Origin: a virus
Taxonomy: Duplodnaviria; Caudoviricetes
Direction: 5' to 3' (one strand)
Virus record (IMG/VR): IMGVR_UViG_3300044638_003693
Location: 1 to 52,578 of that record
DNA length: 52,578 nucleotides
Shown here: positions 1 to 17,687 of the stretch, in pieces
How the letters are laid out: each line of letters starts with the position of its first letter
Numbering within the stretch: the first letter of the stretch is position 1
Program-made: the position numbers and the translations under genes
Notes under the pieces: generated by a model
Told to the model about the DNA's origin: nothing
The model's input: only the letters and a program-made list of their open reading frames with translations
The model's database searches: none

Positions 1-37
1 TGCTCGCTTCGCACGCATAGGCATAAAGGCTTCCAAC

Positions 38-99
38 CTAACAATTTGGTAACGCTCGGGCGTGTCGGCCTTGACGGCGGGAGAGAGAGAGTGTATGCT
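38..99 (+). promoter_or_regulatory. Sigma-A-type early promoter P1 with upstream TAAC direct-repeat box and GTGTC box
   Basis: TTGACG (71-76), 17 nt spacer, TATGCT (94-99). GTGTC at 62-66. CTAACA-N5-GTAACG at 38-54. Confidence 0.75.
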
Positions 100-121
100 A
101 CGCCCGCTAAGGCCAGCCAAG

Positions 122-172
122 ATAACGATTTGGTAACGGCTATTGCCCTTTCCCCCATAGAGAGAGTAGACT
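122..172 (+). promoter_or_regulatory. Second tandem early promoter P2 with TAAC direct-repeat box
   Basis: ATAACG-atttg-GTAACG (122-138), TTGCCC (143-148), 18 nt spacer, TAGACT (167-172). Confidence 0.55.
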
Positions 173-195
173 ACTCCGCCGCGAGCGCGGAAAGA

Positions 196-262
196 GCCTA
201 ATAAGCCTATTAAAGAGAGAGGCTAGGCACGCAGTTAGGCTACTGCCTAATAGCCCTATTAA
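196..262. repeat. Pair of 18-bp near-identical repeats with internal palindrome
   Basis: gcctaataagcctattaa (196-213) and gcctaatagccctattaa (245-262). Core TAATAG-cc-CTATTA is an inverted repeat. Confidence 0.6.
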
Positions 263-453
263 CCACGCAGGGATAAGCCCAGATGTAGAGCAGGTTGCCA
301 AACTTATTAGTAACTAAGGCTGTGGGTAGGTCTGCTACAACTAAACAAGACTGCTTATCTATCTCTATTGGTATCTCTATGAGTAGTTAGTGGTCGAATT
401 GACCAAGCGCCCAATTTTTTCCGCTTGGTTTGGCGTAGCAGGTGGCTTTGATT

Positions 454-475
454 TAGGTGAACAATAGGTGAACAA
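454..475 (-). promoter_or_regulatory. PHO box-like element (PhoP/RegX3-type 11-bp direct repeat)
   Basis: Perfect tandem TAGGTGAACAA x2, which reads GTTCACC-N4-GTTCACC on the - strand, the actinobacterial PHO-box unit and spacing. Confidence 0.65.
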
Positions 476-570
476 ATGGGCAAAACCCTATTTAGATGTC
501 TGGTGCTGTGCTTAGAATTGAGGGCAGGCAACCGCCTACACCTAAATACCAGAAAGCGAGAATACCGCCC

Positions 571-1971
571 ATGTCCATAGCACTAATGATTGAGAGCGAG
601 ATTGAGAGTGGCAAAGAGCAAACTCTCATTATCCCGACCAACACCGAAGTCCTCATGTTTCACCGACTATCCAATGGTCAGAGAGGTCGTGGTCAGCGCT
701 GGCAGTCAGTCAAGACGACTGATGAATTGCCAACGACCCTTATCACGTCAGAACCAAAGGCAGTCCTAATCAGCGCCCGAGATGTAGCAACCGCTGAACT
801 CGGCAACGTCACCGCCCTAGCAGTCAAGTTGCTTGCCGTAGAAAGCAAGCCTGCTAATGAGGCGTTCCCTATCGCCCACGCTGAAATCGCAGGCGAGGTC
901 ATTGAGCAGTTGCTCGCAGGCGACCCTGAACTGAACGCCTACATTAGTGACGGCAGACTACGCAACCCTATTACCTTTACGGCTATCGGAGTTAATCAGC
1001 CTGTTATGGAAAGCGCCTTTTACCCTGTCCTAGCGCAAGAGGTTAGCAATCCTATTCAGGTAGCACCTGCCCCAATCGCCCAAGCCCCAATTCCTGCCGT
1101 ATCAGCACCTCGCAAGGCAGAGGTCGAACTTGCTCGTATCCCAGATAAGAAATGGGCAGACGACTACCTGAACCGCAAAGTCGTAAATGGAAAGACCGAC
1201 TTCGACATACTTGACGTTGCTAAGGCTAATAAGCAGAACGTTCTAATCCGAGGTCACGCTGGCTCGGGTAAGACCATGTGTATCTTGGCATGGGCAAGCG
1301 CTCGTCAGTATCGCTACTACAACATCTCGGCGAACGTTGGGCTAGAACCAAGCCACCTATTCGGCGCTTGGACACCTACCGAACAGGCAGGCGTATTTAA
1401 GTGGCAAGACGGCGCTGTGACTGACCTCGTTAGGCATGGTGGAGTGCTTTTGCTCAACGAAATTGACTTTATGCCAGAGCGAATTACCACAGTCCTATTT
1501 GGACTGCTTGACGACAGGCGTGAAATCCAGTTGCTCGAAAATGGTGGCGAGGTAATCAAGGCGCACCCTGACCTCGTTGTAATCGGCGACCACAACCCGA
1601 ACTACCGAGGCAGTCGCCCAATGAACCAAGCATGGAAAGACCGCTTTGCTCACAAGTTGGAGTTTGACTACGACAGGTCAATCGAAAAGAAACTTATTAA
1701 GAGCGCCTCGTTGCTTGACGTTGCCCAAAAACTCCGTGACCAAGCGCACAAGGGCGAACTTGATACGCCTGTATCGACCAGAGGGCTTATGTCGTTCTGC
1801 CGAAACGTTGAGAACGTTGGGCTTGATTATGCCGTCACCTCTTACGTCAATGGATTTTCTGATGATGAACGTGAGGCAGTCAAGTTAGTTTTCGACACCG
1901 CCAAGTCTGGTATCGCCAGCGACTTTGGTATCACAATCAAGACCGCCCCTACCCAGAGTGACGAGGCTTAA
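571..1971 (+). CDS. MoxR/CbbQ/CobS-like AAA+ ATPase
   Basis: Walker A GHAGSGKT, Walker B LLLNEID, NPNYRG...DRF motifs, and a VWA partner downstream. Start placed at ATG 571 after AGAAAGCGAG (track ORF begins 496). Confidence 0.9.
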   Translation: MSIALMIESEIESGKEQTLIIPTNTEVLMFHRLSNGQRGRGQRWQSVKTTDELPTTLITSEPKAVLISARDVATAELGNVTALAVKLLAVESKPANEAFPIAHAEIAGEVIEQLLAGDPELNAYISDGRLRNPITFTAIGVNQPVMESAFYPVLAQEVSNPIQVAPAPIAQAPIPAVSAPRKAEVELARIPDKKWADDYLNRKVVNGKTDFDILDVAKANKQNVLIRGHAGSGKTMCILAWASARQYRYYNISANVGLEPSHLFGAWTPTEQAGVFKWQDGAVTDLVRHGGVLLLNEIDFMPERITTVLFGLLDDRREIQLLENGGEVIKAHPDLVVIGDHNPNYRGSRPMNQAWKDRFAHKLEFDYDRSIEKKLIKSASLLDVAQKLRDQAHKGELDTPVSTRGLMSFCRNVENVGLDYAVTSYVNGFSDDEREAVKLVFDTAKSGIASDFGITIKTAPTQSDEA

Positions 1972-1975
1972 TAAA

Positions 1976-4048
1976 ATGGCTAAACACATACGCAAAAACG
2001 TAGAATACGACAACGGCGAGGCTTGGCAAAAGTGGTCGGAGTGGGAACGTGAAAACGCTGACCTCTTGGCAGACATGGATTACAGTCACTCAGCGCTAGA
2101 CAAGATTGTTGCCGAAACTGGTCGTGACCGCAACGAAGTCTTTTTGGAACGTCAGCAGGCTTATTGGGAACTGCGAGAAGTCTGGCGGGCAGAGGAATAC
2201 GCTCGGCAGATGAAAAGTGGCGAGTATCTGATTATCAGGAATAATAAACTTGATAGCGCCTGTGCCATTTACCAAAAGGCAGACCGCATTTTGACCAACC
2301 TGCCTGTCCAAGTCTTTCTCAATGACGACCAAGCCAGCGCACCTGCTCACAATGACGGCAAGAACATTACGTTTAATGCCACGCTTATCAAAGACCTTGA
2401 TGATGAAACTGTGAGGTCGCTACATGGACTTAACTATCACGAACTAGCGCACCTGCTATTCACCCCTCGCATTGGCACAGCGCTCGGCAAGTGGGTCATG
2501 GAAAAGGTTAGTAAAACTGTTAAGGTAGAAACTTACCGATACAACCCTGTAACTGGCAAAACAGAACCCTTTAACTACGACCATGAGGTAGAGGAATTGG
2601 CAGAACAGCGCAGGCTGACCGCCTTTAACATTTTAGAGGACAGCCGAGCCGAGCGCCTGCTCACGATTAAGTATCCGAGCGTTAAGCCGTTCTTAACAGT
2701 CTTGATAAGCGATTACATTGTCGAACAGCCCGAGCAACTTGGCGAGGCGTTCTACCTGCTGGCTGGTCGTATGTATCTTGACCGAGAACTCCGAGCGCTA
2801 TCAGCACGCCTTTACGCTGATAAGTATGGCGAGGACAGGGCGAGGGCTATCTACGAAGTCATGGCAGAGTATCGCAAACTTATTTTCCCTCGGGATTACA
2901 CTCGGGCGCAGGAACTAATCACGACCTTAGTAAATCTATTGCCAGAGGAACAGTCTGGCGGTCAGGGTCACGGCGGTCACGGCGGTAGCCCGACAGGTTG
3001 TAGTCACCGACCTCTCATGCGAAACGGCAAGCCCCAGAGTGAGAAAGCCCAAGACGAACTTGATAAGCAAGACGGCGAGGAAAGCGTAAGTCCGTTCCCA
3101 GAAATCGGCGAGGGTGGCGATACCAACACAGGCGAAATCAGCAAAGACAACTCGCACTTTAACGAGGTTGCTAAGGAACTTGTTGATAAAGCCCAAGAGC
3201 AGTCCGAGCGTGCTAAGGCTGATAAGTCACTCAAACAAAAGGTGAGGGATACAGTCGGCGCTATCGCTAGGGATAACTCAACCAAGTCTATTCTTGGAGT
3301 TGCTAGGACTACTAAGCAAGAACCAGCGCAGTCCGAGGTCTTGGCTAGTCGTCTATTCGCCCAAGAGTTAGAGCGCCTGCGTATCGACAGCGACCCTGCT
3401 TGGATTACCGAAATGCCAACAGGCAAACTGAACGTTCAGCGTGCCATGAACGCCGACATCAACGACATCAACAAATTATTTAATCGTTGGGTAATGGGTA
3501 ATGACGACTACGACATTGAGGCTTGTATCCTCATGGACAGGTCAGGCTCTATGTGGACACAGATAGGCGCAGTCTGCCGTAGCGCTTGGGCAATCAAGCG
3601 TGCCGTTGAGAAAATCAACGGCAGGGTGTCGGTCATGACGTTCGGTGATGTATCTCGCACGCTCTACACCGCTGACGAGAAAGCGAAAGCAACTGAAATC
3701 CGCATGGTCGAAAGCGCTGGTGGAACTGACCCCTCGCTTGCGCTCAAAGAAACCGAGCGCATAATGGGCTTATCAACTGCTAAAACGAGGTTGGTCTTTG
3801 TGCTGACTGACGGCGCATTTAATCACAACGAAAATGACCAAATTATTAAGAAACTAAAAGACAACGGAGTTTATACCTCTATCGTATTTTTAGGGCATGA
3901 GGATTACATCAAGCGCATTATGAACAACGCCGAGGAACTGGAAAACATGAGACACGGCGCTCACGACCTACAAATAATCGGCAACCCTAACGACCTTGTT
4001 AAAGTTGCCAAGAGTGTCGTGCGCCACAACGTAAAAGGGAGACGATAA
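1976..4048 (+). CDS. CobT-like VWA-domain protein with N-terminal HExxH metallopeptidase-like domain
   Basis: HELAH plus downstream NILED, an acidic Gly-rich linker, and MIDAS DRSGS...GGT...LTDG. ATG 1976 directly follows the AAA stop. Confidence 0.88.
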   Translation: MAKHIRKNVEYDNGEAWQKWSEWERENADLLADMDYSHSALDKIVAETGRDRNEVFLERQQAYWELREVWRAEEYARQMKSGEYLIIRNNKLDSACAIYQKADRILTNLPVQVFLNDDQASAPAHNDGKNITFNATLIKDLDDETVRSLHGLNYHELAHLLFTPRIGTALGKWVMEKVSKTVKVETYRYNPVTGKTEPFNYDHEVEELAEQRRLTAFNILEDSRAERLLTIKYPSVKPFLTVLISDYIVEQPEQLGEAFYLLAGRMYLDRELRALSARLYADKYGEDRARAIYEVMAEYRKLIFPRDYTRAQELITTLVNLLPEEQSGGQGHGGHGGSPTGCSHRPLMRNGKPQSEKAQDELDKQDGEESVSPFPEIGEGGDTNTGEISKDNSHFNEVAKELVDKAQEQSERAKADKSLKQKVRDTVGAIARDNSTKSILGVARTTKQEPAQSEVLASRLFAQELERLRIDSDPAWITEMPTGKLNVQRAMNADINDINKLFNRWVMGNDDYDIEACILMDRSGSMWTQIGAVCRSAWAIKRAVEKINGRVSVMTFGDVSRTLYTADEKAKATEIRMVESAGGTDPSLALKETERIMGLSTAKTRLVFVLTDGAFNHNENDQIIKKLKDNGVYTSIVFLGHEDYIKRIMNNAEELENMRHGAHDLQIIGNPNDLVKVAKSVVRHNVKGRR

Positions 4049-4263
4049 TGGGCAAGCCTATTAAACCAGACTACGAGTGCGAGGACTGCGGTGCTACCAC
4101 TAGCACCCCAGTTAGCGAGTGTTGCGACTGGTGCTTACTAACCTTGTTTAGTGGCGAACACTCACCAATGCTTGACCTAGCACTTCACCGATACAAAAGC
4201 GTAGCGGATTGGGTCAAAGATGAAACCGACTATTCACCTGACGAGGAAACCGAGGATAACTAA
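4048..4263 (+). CDS. Small Cys-rich (Zn-ribbon-like) early protein
   Basis: CEDC...CCDWC; TAATG coupling to the upstream gene. Confidence 0.7.
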   Translation: MGKPIKPDYECEDCGATTSTPVSECCDWCLLTLFSGEHSPMLDLALHRYKSVADWVKDETDYSPDEETEDN

Positions 4264-4533
4264 ATGGATAACTACAAACCGCAAACAGTAGGCGAACTAA
4301 TCAAGAACCTTAGCGCCCTAGACCCTGCCGAAATTATTATCGGTGCGCTCTTTACGGCAGAGGACTTACAGTATTACCCTGACCTTGACGAGTATGCTGA
4401 CGACTACGAGGCAATCAAGCCGTCACCAGAACTAATGGCAAAGGTCGCCAAGCGCTACGACAACTCTGACGAGGCTATGTTTCTATCACAAACCTTAGAG
4501 GGCTGGCTCGCCGAGGAATTGGGGGATAAATAA
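4264..4533 (+). CDS. Small acidic hypothetical early protein
   Basis: Abuts the previous stop, has a GAGG SD, 89 aa. Confidence 0.75.
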   Translation: MDNYKPQTVGELIKNLSALDPAEIIIGALFTAEDLQYYPDLDEYADDYEAIKPSPELMAKVAKRYDNSDEAMFLSQTLEGWLAEELGDK

Positions 4534-4534
4534 A

Positions 4535-4663
4535 ATGGCTATCCTAATGTGCGACAACTGCGGATACGAAGTTGATGAAGTTGATGAACTTGACTTCTGC
4601 CAGACCTGCCGTAATGCTTACGAGGCAGGGTATCTATCTGGTCGTGGGGGGGTGAACAAATGA
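4535..4663 (+). CDS. 42-aa Zn-ribbon microprotein (not in ORF track)
   Basis: Hand-translated MAILMCDNCGYEVDEVDELDFCQTCRNAYEAGYLSGRGGVNK. It fills the gap and overlaps the next gene by ATGA. Confidence 0.7.
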   Translation: MAILMCDNCGYEVDEVDELDFCQTCRNAYEAGYLSGRGGVNK

Positions 4664-4866
4664 GCGAACAATTCAGAGTTGGATTTAGCAACGAGGAATA
4701 CGGCTGGTATTATTTTAGCGCCGACAGCAAAGAGCAGGCTGAGGAACTAATTGAGCAACTCCAAGAGGGAGTGCTTGACCCCGAGGAACTGCCTGACTTC
4801 TACAAGAAAACTAACGGCGGTTCTGACGAGATAATCTCAGTAGTTGAGAACTTGGGCGACAACTAA
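4660..4866 (+). CDS. Small acidic hypothetical early protein
   Basis: 68 aa, coupled to the upstream ORF, followed by a terminator. Confidence 0.75.
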   Translation: MSEQFRVGFSNEEYGWYYFSADSKEQAEELIEQLQEGVLDPEELPDFYKKTNGGSDEIISVVENLGDN

Positions 4867-4882
4867 ATAGCAATAAAGCATT

Positions 4883-4910
4883 AAGGCGGTCAGAAATGAC
4901 CGCCTTTTTT
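4883..4910 (+). terminator. Rho-independent terminator of the early operon
   Basis: AAGGCGGTCA-GAAA-TGACCGCCTT followed by a T run. Confidence 0.9.
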
Positions 4911-4962
4911 GCTACCTGAAACACCCTACCAGCAGACTTACGCGTGATTTTTTTGCTGACGG

Positions 4963-4989
4963 CTGGCACTCGTAGAGCAAGAGTGCGAG
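4963..4989. promoter_or_regulatory. CIRCE-like element (HrcA operator)
   Basis: CTGGCACTC-N9-GAGTGCGAG versus consensus TTAGCACTC-N9-GAGTGCTAA. The GCACTC/GAGTGC core and 9-nt spacer are exact. Confidence 0.7.
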
Positions 4990-4993
4990 AGAA

Positions 4994-5135
4994 TTAAATA
5001 GTAATTAGGTATTAAAATCCACCTGCGGCGAGGGTTTGTATGCCACCTGCGAACCCCAAAGCCCGCAAAATTAAATACCGAATTACCTATTTAACCAGAG
5101 AACCCAGAGCCATTTGAGAGCCGCCTGCGAACCCC
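4994..5135. repeat. Imperfect AT-rich inverted repeat plus three CC(A/G)CCTGCG copies
   Basis: ttaaatagtaattaggtattaa (4994-5015) is the near reverse complement of ttaaataccgaattacctatttaa (5071-5094). CC(A/G)CCTGCG at 5019, 5043 and 5121. Confidence 0.6.
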
Positions 5136-5158
5136 CCACCGACATTGAGGCGGGTTGC

Positions 5159-5223
5159 GACACGCCGTAGTTTGACTACTAGATGTAGTGGTATAGGCTA
5201 GGGCTAACCACAAGATGTAGTGG
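5159..5223 (+). promoter_or_regulatory. Promoter overlapped by tandem NrdR boxes
   Basis: TTGACT (5172-5177), 16 nt spacer, TAGGCT (5194-5199). CTACTAGATGTAGTGG (5176-5191) and CCACAAGATGTAGTGG (5208-5223) lie 32 bp apart. GACAC at 5159-5163. Confidence 0.72.
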
Positions 5224-5244
5224 TCATAGCAGAGAGGCGTTATC

Positions 5245-5667
5245 ATACAAACTTTCTTGCCCTATCCCAACCTAGCAAAAACAGCCGAAGTGCTGGACTA
5301 TCGCAGGCTTGGTAAGCAACGGATAGAAACATTACAGATACTCCACACCCTCACAGGGGTCAGCCACGGCTGGCGCAACCACCCCGCAGTCAAAATGTGG
5401 GAGGGGCATGAGGTAGTCCTAGCCGACTACGGAATAGCCATGTGTGAGGAGTGGATAGCGAGAGGATACAAAGATACAACCCTGCCTCGACTGCGAGAGA
5501 TAAGAGATAACTTGGAGAACCAAGTGAGAGAACTCCCGAGATGGTGGGGAGAGCCTGCCCTACATATCTCGCACCAGAGCAATCTAATTCGCAAAGACCC
5601 TATTTTCTACGGGCAATTATTTAGTGAAGTACCATACAATTTGCCTTATTACTGGCCTCTGCCATAG
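5245..5667 (+). CDS. Pyrimidine-dimer DNA glycosylase / T4 endonuclease V-like protein (MSMEG_6728-type family)
   Basis: QTFLPYP...LDYRRLGKQRIE...GWRNHPAVKMW...HQSNLIRKDP...YYWP family signature. The conserved N-terminus begins at ATA 5245 after GAGAGG. Confidence 0.85.
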   Translation: MQTFLPYPNLAKTAEVLDYRRLGKQRIETLQILHTLTGVSHGWRNHPAVKMWEGHEVVLADYGIAMCEEWIARGYKDTTLPRLREIRDNLENQVRELPRWWGEPALHISHQSNLIRKDPIFYGQLFSEVPYNLPYYWPLP

Positions 5668-5678
5668 CCTGCTCATCT

Positions 5679-5704
5679 ACCGGCAGCGGCCTGTTGCTGC
5701 CGGT
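5679..5704. terminator. GC-rich hairpin between convergent operons
   Basis: ACCGGCAGCGG-CCTG-TTGCTGCCGGT; no clean U-tract. Confidence 0.55.
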
Positions 5705-5710
5705 GAAGGG

Positions 5711-5808
5711 TTTTGAGAGAGAGATTTCAGAGAGTTAAATAAGAGAGAGCCATTTTGAGAGAGAGATTTTGAGAGAGAAAGAGAGAGATTTTGAGAGAGA
5801 GCCATTTC
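5711..5808. repeat. GA-rich tandem low-complexity repeat (unit about ATTTTGAGAGAGAG)
   Basis: Several copies of TTTGAGAGAGAG/GAGAGAG and two GAGAGAGCCATTT within about 100 bp. Confidence 0.85.
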
Positions 5809-5823
5809 ACGTCAAAAAGAGTG

Positions 5824-6490
5824 CTATTAGTAACTAACTCTATTCGGGGTTAATCTGCTCGATAATGCGATTTGTCTGCTGTTCGTTCATGCCACCATTA
5901 GGTAATTCGTTAAGAACTTGCGCCCTATCACCGAATAAAGCAGAGAGAACTCCCGAGCCACCAGAGCGTTCAGCGGTAATTCTAATGGTCTCTTTTGACT
6001 GGTCTAATTTGTTAATTTGTTCCAGCATTTTAAAGAACCTGTCGATTTCTTGACCAACATTTGGGTCAGGATAACCACCATTTATGTCCTCTGTAAACTT
6101 AGCAAAAGCCACCCGCTGCCCTTGTATTTCAAGGAAAGCGTTGATTAGAGCCTTGAGTTGTTCTTTAGTTTTTAACTCGACTGGCAGGTTAAATGCGCAA
6201 GCGCTGTCGGGCTTGGCAGCAGGGCAACTATCCTTTACAAAACAGGTATTACATTGGCGCAAACTGCTACCGCTTGAGCGGGCAACAGGCACATCTTTTA
6301 CTACATCAATGCCGTTCTCATCAGTTTCGATTACTCGGGTAAAGTCAATGTTTAGGACAGGCAAAGTGCGCATTTCGTCAGGATTTCGCCCCTGAACTTT
6401 CCGCTGTTCGACCCCCCTCTTAGTAACATCAAGTGGGGTAGTTTCCGCTTTTTGGGGGGGTAGTGTATCGTCACTATTAGTAACTAACTC
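5824..6490. repeat. 17-bp perfect direct repeat CTATTAGTAACTAACTC
   Basis: Copies at 5824-5840 and 6474-6490; the 13-bp core is also at 305-317. Contains the palindrome TTAGT-A-ACTAA. Confidence 0.85.
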
Positions 6491-7285
6491 CATTTTATTA
6501 CTCCACGCTTCTAGTTGTAGATATGACCATACTGCTAATTTAGATATTTCAACAGCGTCATCGGCTAATATCTTATCAAAGTCTAGGTTTGCCTGCTCGT
6601 ATACGGCTTTGTATCGGCTTCTTGCCTGTTCTTTCATACGCTTTGGGTATCGCGTAAGAGTGTTTGCGTGCCACACAATAGTCTCGCCCCTCATCATTGG
6701 CGAGAGCCAAGCAAGAGTAGCCATGGTTTTAAATGGGGAATTACGTATTAAATCGGGTTTAGCCAGCCCTGCGGTGTGGAATTGAGTGCCATGCTTATCC
6801 GCGTAGCTTCTCATCTGCGCTGCGAGTCGAGCGTTATCCTCGTAGTCACTTCCGTGGATAAAAACATTTAAATACCTAGTAGCAAGGCTTTCTAGGTCGC
6901 CACCCGTATAAACTGCAGCAAACTTCTCATCAGGAACTTCTGCCCAGACTGTTGCTCGCTGCTGGTCAATGAACTCTTGGGTAAGGTCTGGGTGGGTTAC
7001 CTCGGTAAATAGGGTAATCCTATCTAGGTTCTCGGCAATAAATGTTTCATAGTCAGCGCAAAAATCTTCTAACTCTTCCCTGCTGAGTGAAGCGGCCGCA
7101 GGTATTCCAGGGGTTACAAATACCTCAACACCCTCAAGAAAATAGTTTTCTAGCAAATATTTCTTGGTTTTAGGCAATCCGCGCTTCATTAGCCCCCAAA
7201 CACTGACTCCCATCCTGGTTGCGTGTGCTTGTTCTAGGATTAGACGATTGCTAGGGACTTCTGCGCCCAAATAAACTATTTTCAT
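5840..7285 (-). CDS. Degenerate TGT/DpdA-like TIM-barrel protein fused to a C-terminal Cys-rich domain
   Basis: Motif order matches phage TGT-like proteins (KIVYLG...VFVTPG...YETFI...LFTEVT...QFHTAG...PFKTMATLAW...G). C-terminal CNTC-x5-C-x8-C. Confidence 0.5.
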   Translation of the reverse strand: MKIVYLGAEVPSNRLILEQAHATRMGVSVWGLMKRGLPKTKKYLLENYFLEGVEVFVTPGIPAAASLSREELEDFCADYETFIAENLDRITLFTEVTHPDLTQEFIDQQRATVWAEVPDEKFAAVYTGGDLESLATRYLNVFIHGSDYEDNARLAAQMRSYADKHGTQFHTAGLAKPDLIRNSPFKTMATLAWLSPMMRGETIVWHANTLTRYPKRMKEQARSRYKAVYEQANLDFDKILADDAVEISKLAVWSYLQLEAWSNKMELVTNSDDTLPPQKAETTPLDVTKRGVEQRKVQGRNPDEMRTLPVLNIDFTRVIETDENGIDVVKDVPVARSSGSSLRQCNTCFVKDSCPAAKPDSACAFNLPVELKTKEQLKALINAFLEIQGQRVAFAKFTEDINGGYPDPNVGQEIDRFFKMLEQINKLDQSKETIRITAERSGGSGVLSALFGDRAQVLNELPNGGMNEQQTNRIIEQINPE

Positions 7286-14487: not shown

Positions 14488-14871
14488 CTATTTTTCTGGC
14501 CAGTCCCCATCGATTACCATAAGGGCAATAATGGCGTAATTGGCCATGTCCAGGAAGGAATCGCGCAGGCTCTCGTTTTTAGGCTCGACACCGCTGTCTA
14601 GCAGGTGGTTGATGCGGGCGCTCTTGTCGTGGATACGGACTCGTAGACCGTTCAGCGGGCCGCCAGGGGCGTTTGAAATGTTAGTAGGTCCGTAGTCCTC
14701 GTGCTTCTGTAGCAGCAGGGCCTTGGCTTCTTGGAACTTAAACTGCAGGGCGTCGTTGAACTCCTTGTTGGCACCGTTGTTGCGGACATTCTTCATCAGG
14801 TCTGTGGTTAGCTCAACAGGTATAACGCCGTTGGTATCAAAAATCCGTGAAAAGTCTTCATAGTTTGACAT
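14488..14871 (-). CDS. DUF1599 / nucleotide-modification-associated domain protein
   Basis: KHEDYG...RIHDKSAR...ESLRDSFLDMANYAII. Confidence 0.8.
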   Translation of the reverse strand: MSNYEDFSRIFDTNGVIPVELTTDLMKNVRNNGANKEFNDALQFKFQEAKALLLQKHEDYGPTNISNAPGGPLNGLRVRIHDKSARINHLLDSGVEPKNESLRDSFLDMANYAIIALMVIDGDWPEK

Positions 14872-17315: not shown

Positions 17316-17687
17316 CTTTGTTTTTTTAGCCAGCTCTTCTAACGTTTTTCCCTGGCGTGTTGCTTTTCGTTTTAGAGCAGCCCGCTCACGGTGGCTCATC
17401 CCACCCCAGATGCCGTGAACCTTATCAGTCTTATCAGCAAACAATAGGCACTGCATGCGAACTGGGCACTCGCCCCTGCCATCTTTCCCATAGCAAATGG
17501 CCTTAGCTTTATCAGCTATAGGCTTGTAAAGGCTTTTATCTCTGGGCGGAAACCACAAGTCTGGGTCATAAACATTTACCGGAGGCTTTGAGCCAGGGAC
17601 TGTGTCTGCACATTTAGCCTGCTCCATCCAGCCTTCATAAGTTAGAAAACCGGGCGTGTCGCTAGACGACTCGTAGGGTGACTTCAA
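17313..17687 (-). CDS. whiB: WhiB-family Fe-S transcription factor
   Basis: W..QAKC...LWFP...AKAIC...CPVRMQC...GIWGG. TTG start after GGAG assumed. Confidence 0.9.
   Translation of the reverse strand: MKSPYESSSDTPGFLTYEGWMEQAKCADTVPGSKPPVNVYDPDLWFPPRDKSLYKPIADKAKAICYGKDGRGECPVRMQCLLFADKTDKVHGIWGGMSHRERAALKRKATRQGKTLEELAKKTK

Follow-up and report, generated by a model that had tools for sequence, protein, structure and literature searches.

Two non-coding blocks flank a plus-strand operon (571–4866, delimited by Pfam and PHROGs matches and by synteny in relatives) in a 52,578-nucleotide viral contig (Duplodnaviria; Caudoviricetes; IMG/VR record IMGVR_UViG_3300044638_003693), which was analysed in full and is referred to here as the window. 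An earlier note had read these blocks as a bank of host transcription-factor operators that would serve the phage as decoys. A sequence scan located every motif on its list, but not as a decoy bank: both blocks are probably phage promoter regions in which the motifs act in cis on phage genes. Among the motifs listed, the one secure case is a pair of NrdR-type boxes in front of a DenV-like DNA-repair gene which, judged by its sequence, appears to be a genuine host-type operator.

The two candidate NrdR boxes, neither of which was assigned a strand, span 5176–5191 (CTACTAGATGTAGTGG) and 5208–5223 (CCACAAGATGTAGTGG) and have AGATGTAGTGGT in common, at 5181 and 5213, 32 base pairs (bp) apart. According to PMC13584703, an NrdR site consists of two 16-bp, partly palindromic boxes with a linker of 15–16 bp, in which C4, A6, A8, T9, T11 and G13 are conserved and the interval from C4 to G13 is at least 63% A/T. 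In the window, all six conserved positions are present in each box (12 of 12 for the pair), the linker is 16 bp, the A/T share from C4 to G13 is 75% in each box, and 13 of 16 bases agree with a logo-derived synthetic NrdR box. In quality, the pair exceeds the natural Streptomyces coelicolor sites given in PMC13584703. A pair scoring 12 of 12 occurs once in the 52.6-kb window, and 7 of 1000 shuffled windows contained at least one. When the window and 58 loci were scanned at a cut-off of at least 11 of 12, two pairs scoring 11 were observed beyond this site and its copies (one within coding sequence in L015, one in L038), roughly what chance alone would give. The claim that two NrdR-type 16-mers lie 32 bp apart thus held on all of the published sequence and spacing criteria, and the pair is kept in the related contig L013.

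The gene downstream of the pair is not a ribonucleotide reductase operon; it encodes a DenV-like pyrimidine-dimer DNA glycosylase (Pyr_excise, PF03013, E = 3.7e-21) on the plus strand at 5245–5667. A promoter-like unit read from the sequence (plus strand, 5172–5199) consists of TTGACT, a spacer of 16 nucleotides (nt) and TAGGCT, and at the equivalent site of L013, TTGACC and TATGCT, again 16 nt apart, flank box 1 as they do in the window. In both lineages, box 1 is located inside the spacer between the -35 and -10 hexamers, and box 2 follows the -10 hexamer directly, across the predicted transcription start. The distance from the end of box 2 to the DenV-like start codon is 21 nt, since the reading frame begins at a conserved QTFLPY behind ATA, ATT or ATC. 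The likely start is accordingly an isoleucine codon, ATA in the window (5245–5247), ATT in L002 and in L004, and ATC in L013; in the window, a ribosome-binding site, GAGAGG (5232–5237), precedes it by 7 nt. Copies of the pair with the same gene downstream were found in L002/L003 (also L025/L026) and in L013, whose CobS-like and DenV-like proteins are 62% and 64% identical to those of the window, respectively. The window, G001 and G002 contain one pair each, and three near-complete relatives contain none.

Neither the window nor four relatives yielded an ATP-cone protein, and any protein binding the pair would therefore be the NrdR of the host. As stated in PMC9110341, the form of NrdR that binds DNA is a tetramer carrying both dATP and ATP; NrdR carrying ATP only cannot bind. 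PMC6755750 reports strong induction of the host NrdR regulon when phage SpSL1 infects Streptococcus pneumoniae lytically. From this nucleotide dependence and this induction, we infer that an NrdR-controlled phage promoter opens as dATP drains; binding, direction of regulation and timing at the site in the window are likewise deduced. We propose that the block at 4911–5256 would act as a separate promoter for the DenV-like gene, with the tandem NrdR operator placed over the spacer and predicted start. This promoter would be shut while dATP is plentiful and would open when phage DNA synthesis has depleted it, so that the phage would use a host mechanism as a switch coupled to replication. If so, it would be a clear case of a virus carrying the operator of a universal bacterial sensor of deoxynucleoside triphosphates (dNTPs) on a gene unrelated to dNTP synthesis. 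A search of the literature, with subscription journals and supplements outside its coverage, returned no description of non-reductase phage genes under NrdR.

The block at 1–570 would represent the visible part of a conserved region with three sigma-70-like units, P1–P3, and one direct-repeat box before each. The non-coding stretch that precedes the CobS-like gene, the first of the operon, is about 850 bp long (about 650–1050 bp in the contigs that read through it), and alignment of this region from 19 related contigs (alignment A1) revealed block-wise conservation. All boxes and units lie on the plus strand. Box 1 (39–54, TAACAATTTGGTAACG) has the form TAAC-N7-TAAC, corresponding to GTTACC-N5-GTTA on the reverse strand, and ends 16 nt before the -35 hexamer of P1 (71–99), which was identified by promoter scan and comprises TTGACG, a 17-nt spacer with a GAGAGAGAG run, and TATGCT. 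Box 2 (123–138, TAACGATTTGGTAACG) has the same TAAC-N7-TAAC form and ends 4 nt before the -35 hexamer of P2 (143–172), which was recognised from the sequence and from A1 and comprises TTGCCC (TTGAC in relatives), an 18-nt spacer with a GA run, and TAGACT. Box 3 (454–475) contains TAGGTGAACAA twice, that is, GTTCACC at an 11-bp period on the reverse strand, and is located upstream of P3 (491–518; TTTAGA, 16-nt spacer, TAGAAT), again identified by promoter scan.

Several of these positions are strongly conserved. TAAC-N7-TAAC matches twice in the window versus 0.12 expected. In box 2 (TAACGATTTGGTAAC), T123, A124, A125, C126, A128, T129, T134 and A136 are at least 90% conserved in A1, and no differences are listed within the box in 4 lake metagenome runs, with differences on either side of it. 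In the -10 hexamer of P3, T513, A514 and T518 are invariant in 19 sequences. In L011, L012 and L020, further plus-strand genes are likewise headed by a direct-repeat box with TTGAC, a GA run and TAnnnT behind it, indicating that box plus promoter-like unit is a standard module of this phage group.

The MtrA site has been described as [G/T]T[G/A]ACC-N5-GT[G/T]ACN, two hexamers 5 nt apart (PMC5650626), and the PHO box as two 11-nt units containing GTTCACC (PMC6988585). The sequence at 454–475 agrees with the latter definition on the reverse strand, as two 11-nt direct-repeat units with GTTCACC. At this place in A1, relatives have a two-unit repeat, often of GGTAAC but also of GATGAAC or GGTTAAT (for example TAGGTAACGATTAGGTAACGAT in L019), and do not keep the GTTCACC core. 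Since GGTAAC-type units stand where the window has GTTCACC, the MtrA/GlnR-type and PhoP-type boxes form one repeat class. The TAAC boxes and the GTTCACC tandem are set apart from chance by their conservation in relatives, but they are not the separate MtrA/GlnR and PhoP operators of the earlier note. With their period of 11 bp, the GTTACC- or GTTCACC-type repeats have the geometry of sites of the OmpR/PhoB family (MtrA, GlnR, PhoP), and the protein that binds them could be of host or phage origin.

The GTGTC/GACAC boxes proposed as WhiA sites gave a mixed picture. As a 5-mer, GACAC occurs at background frequency (1.75 per kb in one block and 2.99 per kb in the other, versus 1.37 per kb in the window), but both boxes fall within an enriched 9-mer, GGCGTGTCG, with three copies in the window versus 0.27 expected; none of 100 shuffles reached three. 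Copy 1 (plus strand, 59–67) contains GTGTC at 62 and ends 3 nt before the -35 hexamer of P1. Copy 2 (minus strand, 5158–5166; CGACACGCC on the plus strand) has GACAC at 5159 and ends 5 nt before the -35 hexamer of the DenV-like gene. The two copies beside a -35 hexamer are oppositely oriented, and the third is located at 17653–17661 within the reading frame of a WhiB-like protein. L003 and L013 also have copy 1 ahead of their equivalent promoters, and copy 2 is also present in L002/L003. WhiA binds GACAC upstream of the -35 hexamer on either strand and at variable spacing, with WhiB bridging to sigma (PMC10243135). The 9-mer could therefore be a WhiA-type (GACAC) activator site that works together with the phage's own WhiB-like protein; because the phage encodes such a protein, we regard this as a lead, not as a result.

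An inverted repeat resembling CIRCE, the operator of HrcA, is located at 4966–4986 (GCACTC-N9-GAGTGC, unstranded). Its core is exact (12 of 12), and compared with the consensus TTAGCACTC-N9-GAGTGCTAA (quoted in PMC13435591) it matches at 14 of 18 bases with perfect six-base arms. With up to 4 mismatches allowed, it is the sole repeat of this kind in the window, but a match of equal quality was obtained 0.19 times per shuffled window on average and in 18% of shuffles. The resemblance to CIRCE is exact in the core and statistically borderline. The repeat follows the open reading frame (ORF) ending at 4866 by 100 nt, and its neighbours are this small ORF and the DenV-like gene, not a chaperone gene. 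It is identical in L002/L003; in L013, GCAGTC-N9-GAGTGCTAAC again occurs soon after the terminator with a wholly different spacer, and the retention of the arms despite this difference indicates some constraint. The repeat may be an HrcA site or a mere hairpin. Two further candidates in this block were discarded: a small ORF at 5040–5117 (25 amino acids) is not conserved in the L002 alignment, and a fold of 4955–5175 (plus-strand z-score -3.1) relies on a long AT-rich stem that is lost in L002.

Several observations weigh against regulation of phage genes in cis by these motifs. The NrdR pair is missing from the three near-complete relatives, and L004 has its DenV-like gene within the operon and lacks the pair; the proposed NrdR control is therefore confined to one lineage. 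The promoter scan flagged neither the DenV unit, with its -10 hexamer TAGGCT, nor P2, and no RNA run is among the public runs listed for bases 1–6000, so that every promoter described here is a prediction at the level of consensus. On the reverse strand, boxes 1 and 2 (GTTACC-N5-GTTA(G/T)) agree with 9 of the 11 positions that the MtrA consensus specifies, and a phage protein might just as well bind the direct-repeat boxes, or they might serve as upstream (UP) elements. The third copy of the 9-mer is coding and lacks the promoter layout, and no promoter or gene could be recognised for the CIRCE-like repeat, which lacks significance window-wide.

An alternative that we consider unlikely, though the strongest of those weighed, is that the repeats and palindromes other than the NrdR pair are sites of phage-encoded proteins, used in early autoregulation, replication or packaging. 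It takes in the direct-repeat boxes, the GGCTACTGCC...AGGGATAAGCCCAGATG block, the palindrome TTAGTAACTAA and the GA runs. These elements are conserved in relatives at only about 60% protein identity and recur within phage genomes, and the operon includes small ORFs of zinc-ribbon type (DUF7575). The invariant block (plus strand, 236–285) consists of GGCTACTGCC, 21 nt and AGGGATAAGCCCAGATG, and both parts were found at fixed spacing in 19 of 24 records, 320–363 nt upstream of the CobS-like gene. A structured RNA at 228–300 was rejected as a candidate (16 sequences; 6 predicted pairs, none with a compensatory change), and a search of Rfam with bases 1–6000 at E values up to 1 gave no match. The block thus lacks RNA covariation, indicating conservation at the sequence level, in favour of this alternative. 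The palindrome at 307–317 (unstranded) recurs at 5827–5837 and 6477–6487, with 5 matches versus 1.3 expected, and its T308, A309 and T315 are invariant in A1. Set against this, no candidate binding protein was identified, and the geometry of the boxes fits the published response-regulator sites (PMC5650626, PMC6988585). Tandem GA-rich TTTTGAGAGAGAGA repeats at 5700–5800, followed by TTAGTAACTAA, were also observed between the convergent genes for the DenV-like protein and a queuine-transferase-like protein, an arrangement preserved in L013 (10370–10500).

The ends of the related contigs bear on the same alternative. Of the 24 related contigs, nine break off in the 600 nt that precede the CobS-like gene, and four begin at one column of A1, at the right edge of an inverted repeat of about 24 bp (TTGTTGAGTTGGAAGCCTTTAGCC and its complement), which in relatives lies just upstream of the window start (A1 columns 370–450). 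The cluster of contig ends near the window start could reflect a genome terminus, the margin of a terminal repeat or a site where strains diverge. Logan contigs of two runs part from the window just after base 38; the shared start coincides with this strain-variation junction and thus need not mark a packaging end. A genome end at base 37 was therefore not adopted as a reading, since the breaks in the contigs may stem from strain variation.

The decoy bank itself, in which the multiplying phage genome would titrate host NrdR, HrcA and others and thereby switch on host reductase and chaperonin, is in our view improbable. It would be a new route of host reprogramming if true, but the anatomy of the region does not support it. 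The premise that neither reductase nor chaperonin genes accompany the sites was borne out and extends to the three near-complete relatives: ribonucleotide reductase (PF02867), Cpn10 and Cpn60 were each absent from the 5 records searched per family (3 of them with a completeness of 97% or more). In favour of the decoy bank, the phage group lacks these genes and the ATP-cone protein, the pair surpasses the natural S. coelicolor sites in PMC13584703, and a multicopy genome makes some titration physically unavoidable, if only as a side effect. Nevertheless, there is no array. The window, G001 and G002 each have a single NrdR pair, the window has a single CIRCE-like repeat, and the pair is lacking altogether in the three near-complete relatives. 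Nor are the sites remote from genes: the NrdR boxes end 21 nt before the DenV-like start, and the CIRCE-like repeat, placed by the earlier note about 255 bp from any gene, lies 100 nt behind an ORF. The NrdR boxes overlap a predicted promoter in the layout of regulated promoters, the sites read as those of MtrA and of PhoP are one repeat class adjoining -35 hexamers, and the 9-mer likewise abuts promoter-like units. In addition, PMC6755750 reports induction of a host NrdR regulon in one lytic infection, with no decoy invoked. The alternative that the earlier note itself had offered, namely promoters that read the status of the host, fits this anatomy better.

Very improbable, finally, is that all resemblances other than the NrdR pair are due to chance, the CIRCE-like repeat being a post-terminator hairpin and the boxes AT-rich upstream elements without a dedicated regulator: the shuffling result for CIRCE, the background frequency of the GACAC 5-mer and the count of GTTACC-N5-GTTA at up to 1 mismatch (3 in the window versus 3.4 expected) would agree with this, but the CIRCE-like arms are kept around a differing spacer in L013, particular G and C bases within the boxes reach a conservation of at least 90%, and the 9-mer is over-represented.

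The regulated promoter proposed for the DenV-like gene may have counterparts in other viruses. Three pattern scans of IMG/VR for strict NrdR pairs yielded 18, 3 and 74 contigs, with the 18 contained in the 74, giving 77 viral contigs in total (L061–L138; examples are L074:42–85, L072:2724–2767, L097:1863–1906 and L127:1123–1166) with a GC content of 0.33 to 0.70; 3 of these are related to the window. The pair is located immediately upstream of a gene in many viral contigs that are unrelated. Part of the neighbouring ORFs were scanned, 19 by Pfam and then 25 and 55 by PHROGs, omitting contigs that share a scanned site. In 23 contigs, a chain of ORFs that begins no more than 130 nt from the pair has, in first or second place, a gene for packaging, the head or the connector (small or large terminase subunit, portal, major head protein, protease, scaffold or adaptor), a count that is uncontrolled for the enrichment of hallmark genes on short viral contigs. 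Other neighbours comprise one RusA and many ORFs of no assigned function, and no ribonucleotide reductase was found among the neighbours scanned. In 18 contigs, no ORF of at least 60 amino acids starts within 130 nt of the pair. A scan of bacterial genomes with the strict pattern returned one match, in a contig of a Chloroflexia metagenome-assembled genome unrelated to the window (L079:4949–4994), where the NrdR-like pair adjoins the apparent end of a tRNA gene.

We tentatively suggest, as a possibility that falls somewhat short of an even chance, that many unrelated phages use host NrdR as a dNTP-sensing gate, the DenV-like promoter being one instance of a portable cassette that elsewhere heads the packaging and head module. 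If this is true, late genes would open only after phage DNA synthesis has lowered dATP, and no phage-encoded regulator would be needed. NrdR gating of these promoters would provide a simple coupling of late expression to replication in phages without late regulators of their own, and it would widen the NrdR regulon past the reductase genes.

The record from which the window derives is of linear class, with a completeness estimate of 57%, and base 1 is therefore the end of a contig and not of the genome. Annotation of 58 ORFs against Pfam and PHROGs indicated a contractile-tailed phage with sheath, tube and baseplate genes, PolA, DnaB, a primase, RecA and the WhiB-like regulator. The CobS-like ATPase is 44–47% identical to proteins of Brevibacterium and Gordonia phages across about 58% of its length, and the tail sheath is 41–42% identical to Streptomyces phage proteins, so that the nearest cultured relatives are actinophages (Brevibacterium, Gordonia and Streptomyces phages). 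Actinobacteria are the sole carriers of WhiB-like proteins according to PMC6282962. Given the WhiB-like gene and the actinophages as closest cultured relatives, an actinobacterial host is plausible. A megablast search of bases 1–6000 against cultured phages gave no match. The same bases were found in part in 24 public runs, which belong to 21 studies; 10 of these runs contain half or more of the sampled words, and all 10 are labelled as lake water metagenomes.

The operon between the two blocks begins with the CobS-like (AAA_5) ATPase gene (571–1971), followed by a gene for a VWA protein (1976–4048) and by four small ORFs, the last of which ends at 4866, all on the plus strand. A strong intrinsic terminator at 4883–4913 (plus strand), with a 10-bp stem followed by a T run, is conserved in L002 and L013. 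Beyond the DenV-like gene, a queuine tRNA-ribosyltransferase-like ORF of DpdA type (5840–7285) and a DUF1599 'nucleotide modification associated' ORF (14488–14871), both on the minus strand, hint at modified bases in the phage DNA, possibly 7-deazaguanine.

Host regulators are known to run phage genes, as exemplified by the PhoB-controlled pstS and phoA of cyanophages and by LexA-controlled prophage genes. The promoter of the DenV-like gene would resemble these cases in that a host operator is copied into a viral promoter and expression tracks a host signal; by analogy, the signal here would instead be the dATP/ATP balance, sensed via NrdR. With the NrdR-repressed reductase operons, S. coelicolor nrdAB and nrdRJ and Escherichia coli nrd, the site in the window shares the pair of 16-bp boxes, the six conserved positions, the 16-bp linker and the position of the pair over promoter and transcription start, both of which are predicted here. 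Unlike in these operons, the gene concerned is a phage DenV-like glycosylase gene, in a virus without NrdR or reductase. Titration loci such as datA, which serves for DnaA, are clustered sites that do not double as promoters. In principle, many copies of a high-affinity site could lower free repressor in the phage as well, but here a single NrdR pair is embedded in a promoter.

The remaining motifs resemble known systems to different degrees. Similar to the actinobacterial sites of MtrA, GlnR and PhoP, the direct-repeat boxes consist of hexamer or heptamer units repeated every 11 bp, with GTTCACC twice in box 3; the GTTACC-type units of relatives suggest that they are not PhoP-specific, and the agreement with MtrA is limited to 9 of 11 positions. 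The CIRCE-like repeat has the exact GCACTC-N9-GAGTGC core of the HrcA sites of groES and groEL (14 of 18 bases), but differs in having no chaperone gene or recognisable promoter adjacent and in being borderline against shuffles. As in the WhiA/WhiB system at sepX, GACAC occurs just before the -35 hexamer on either strand in a genome with a WhiB-family gene, whereas the distance of 3 to 5 nt from the -35 hexamer, the conserved 9-mer unit and the phage-encoded WhiB would set the putative phage system apart.

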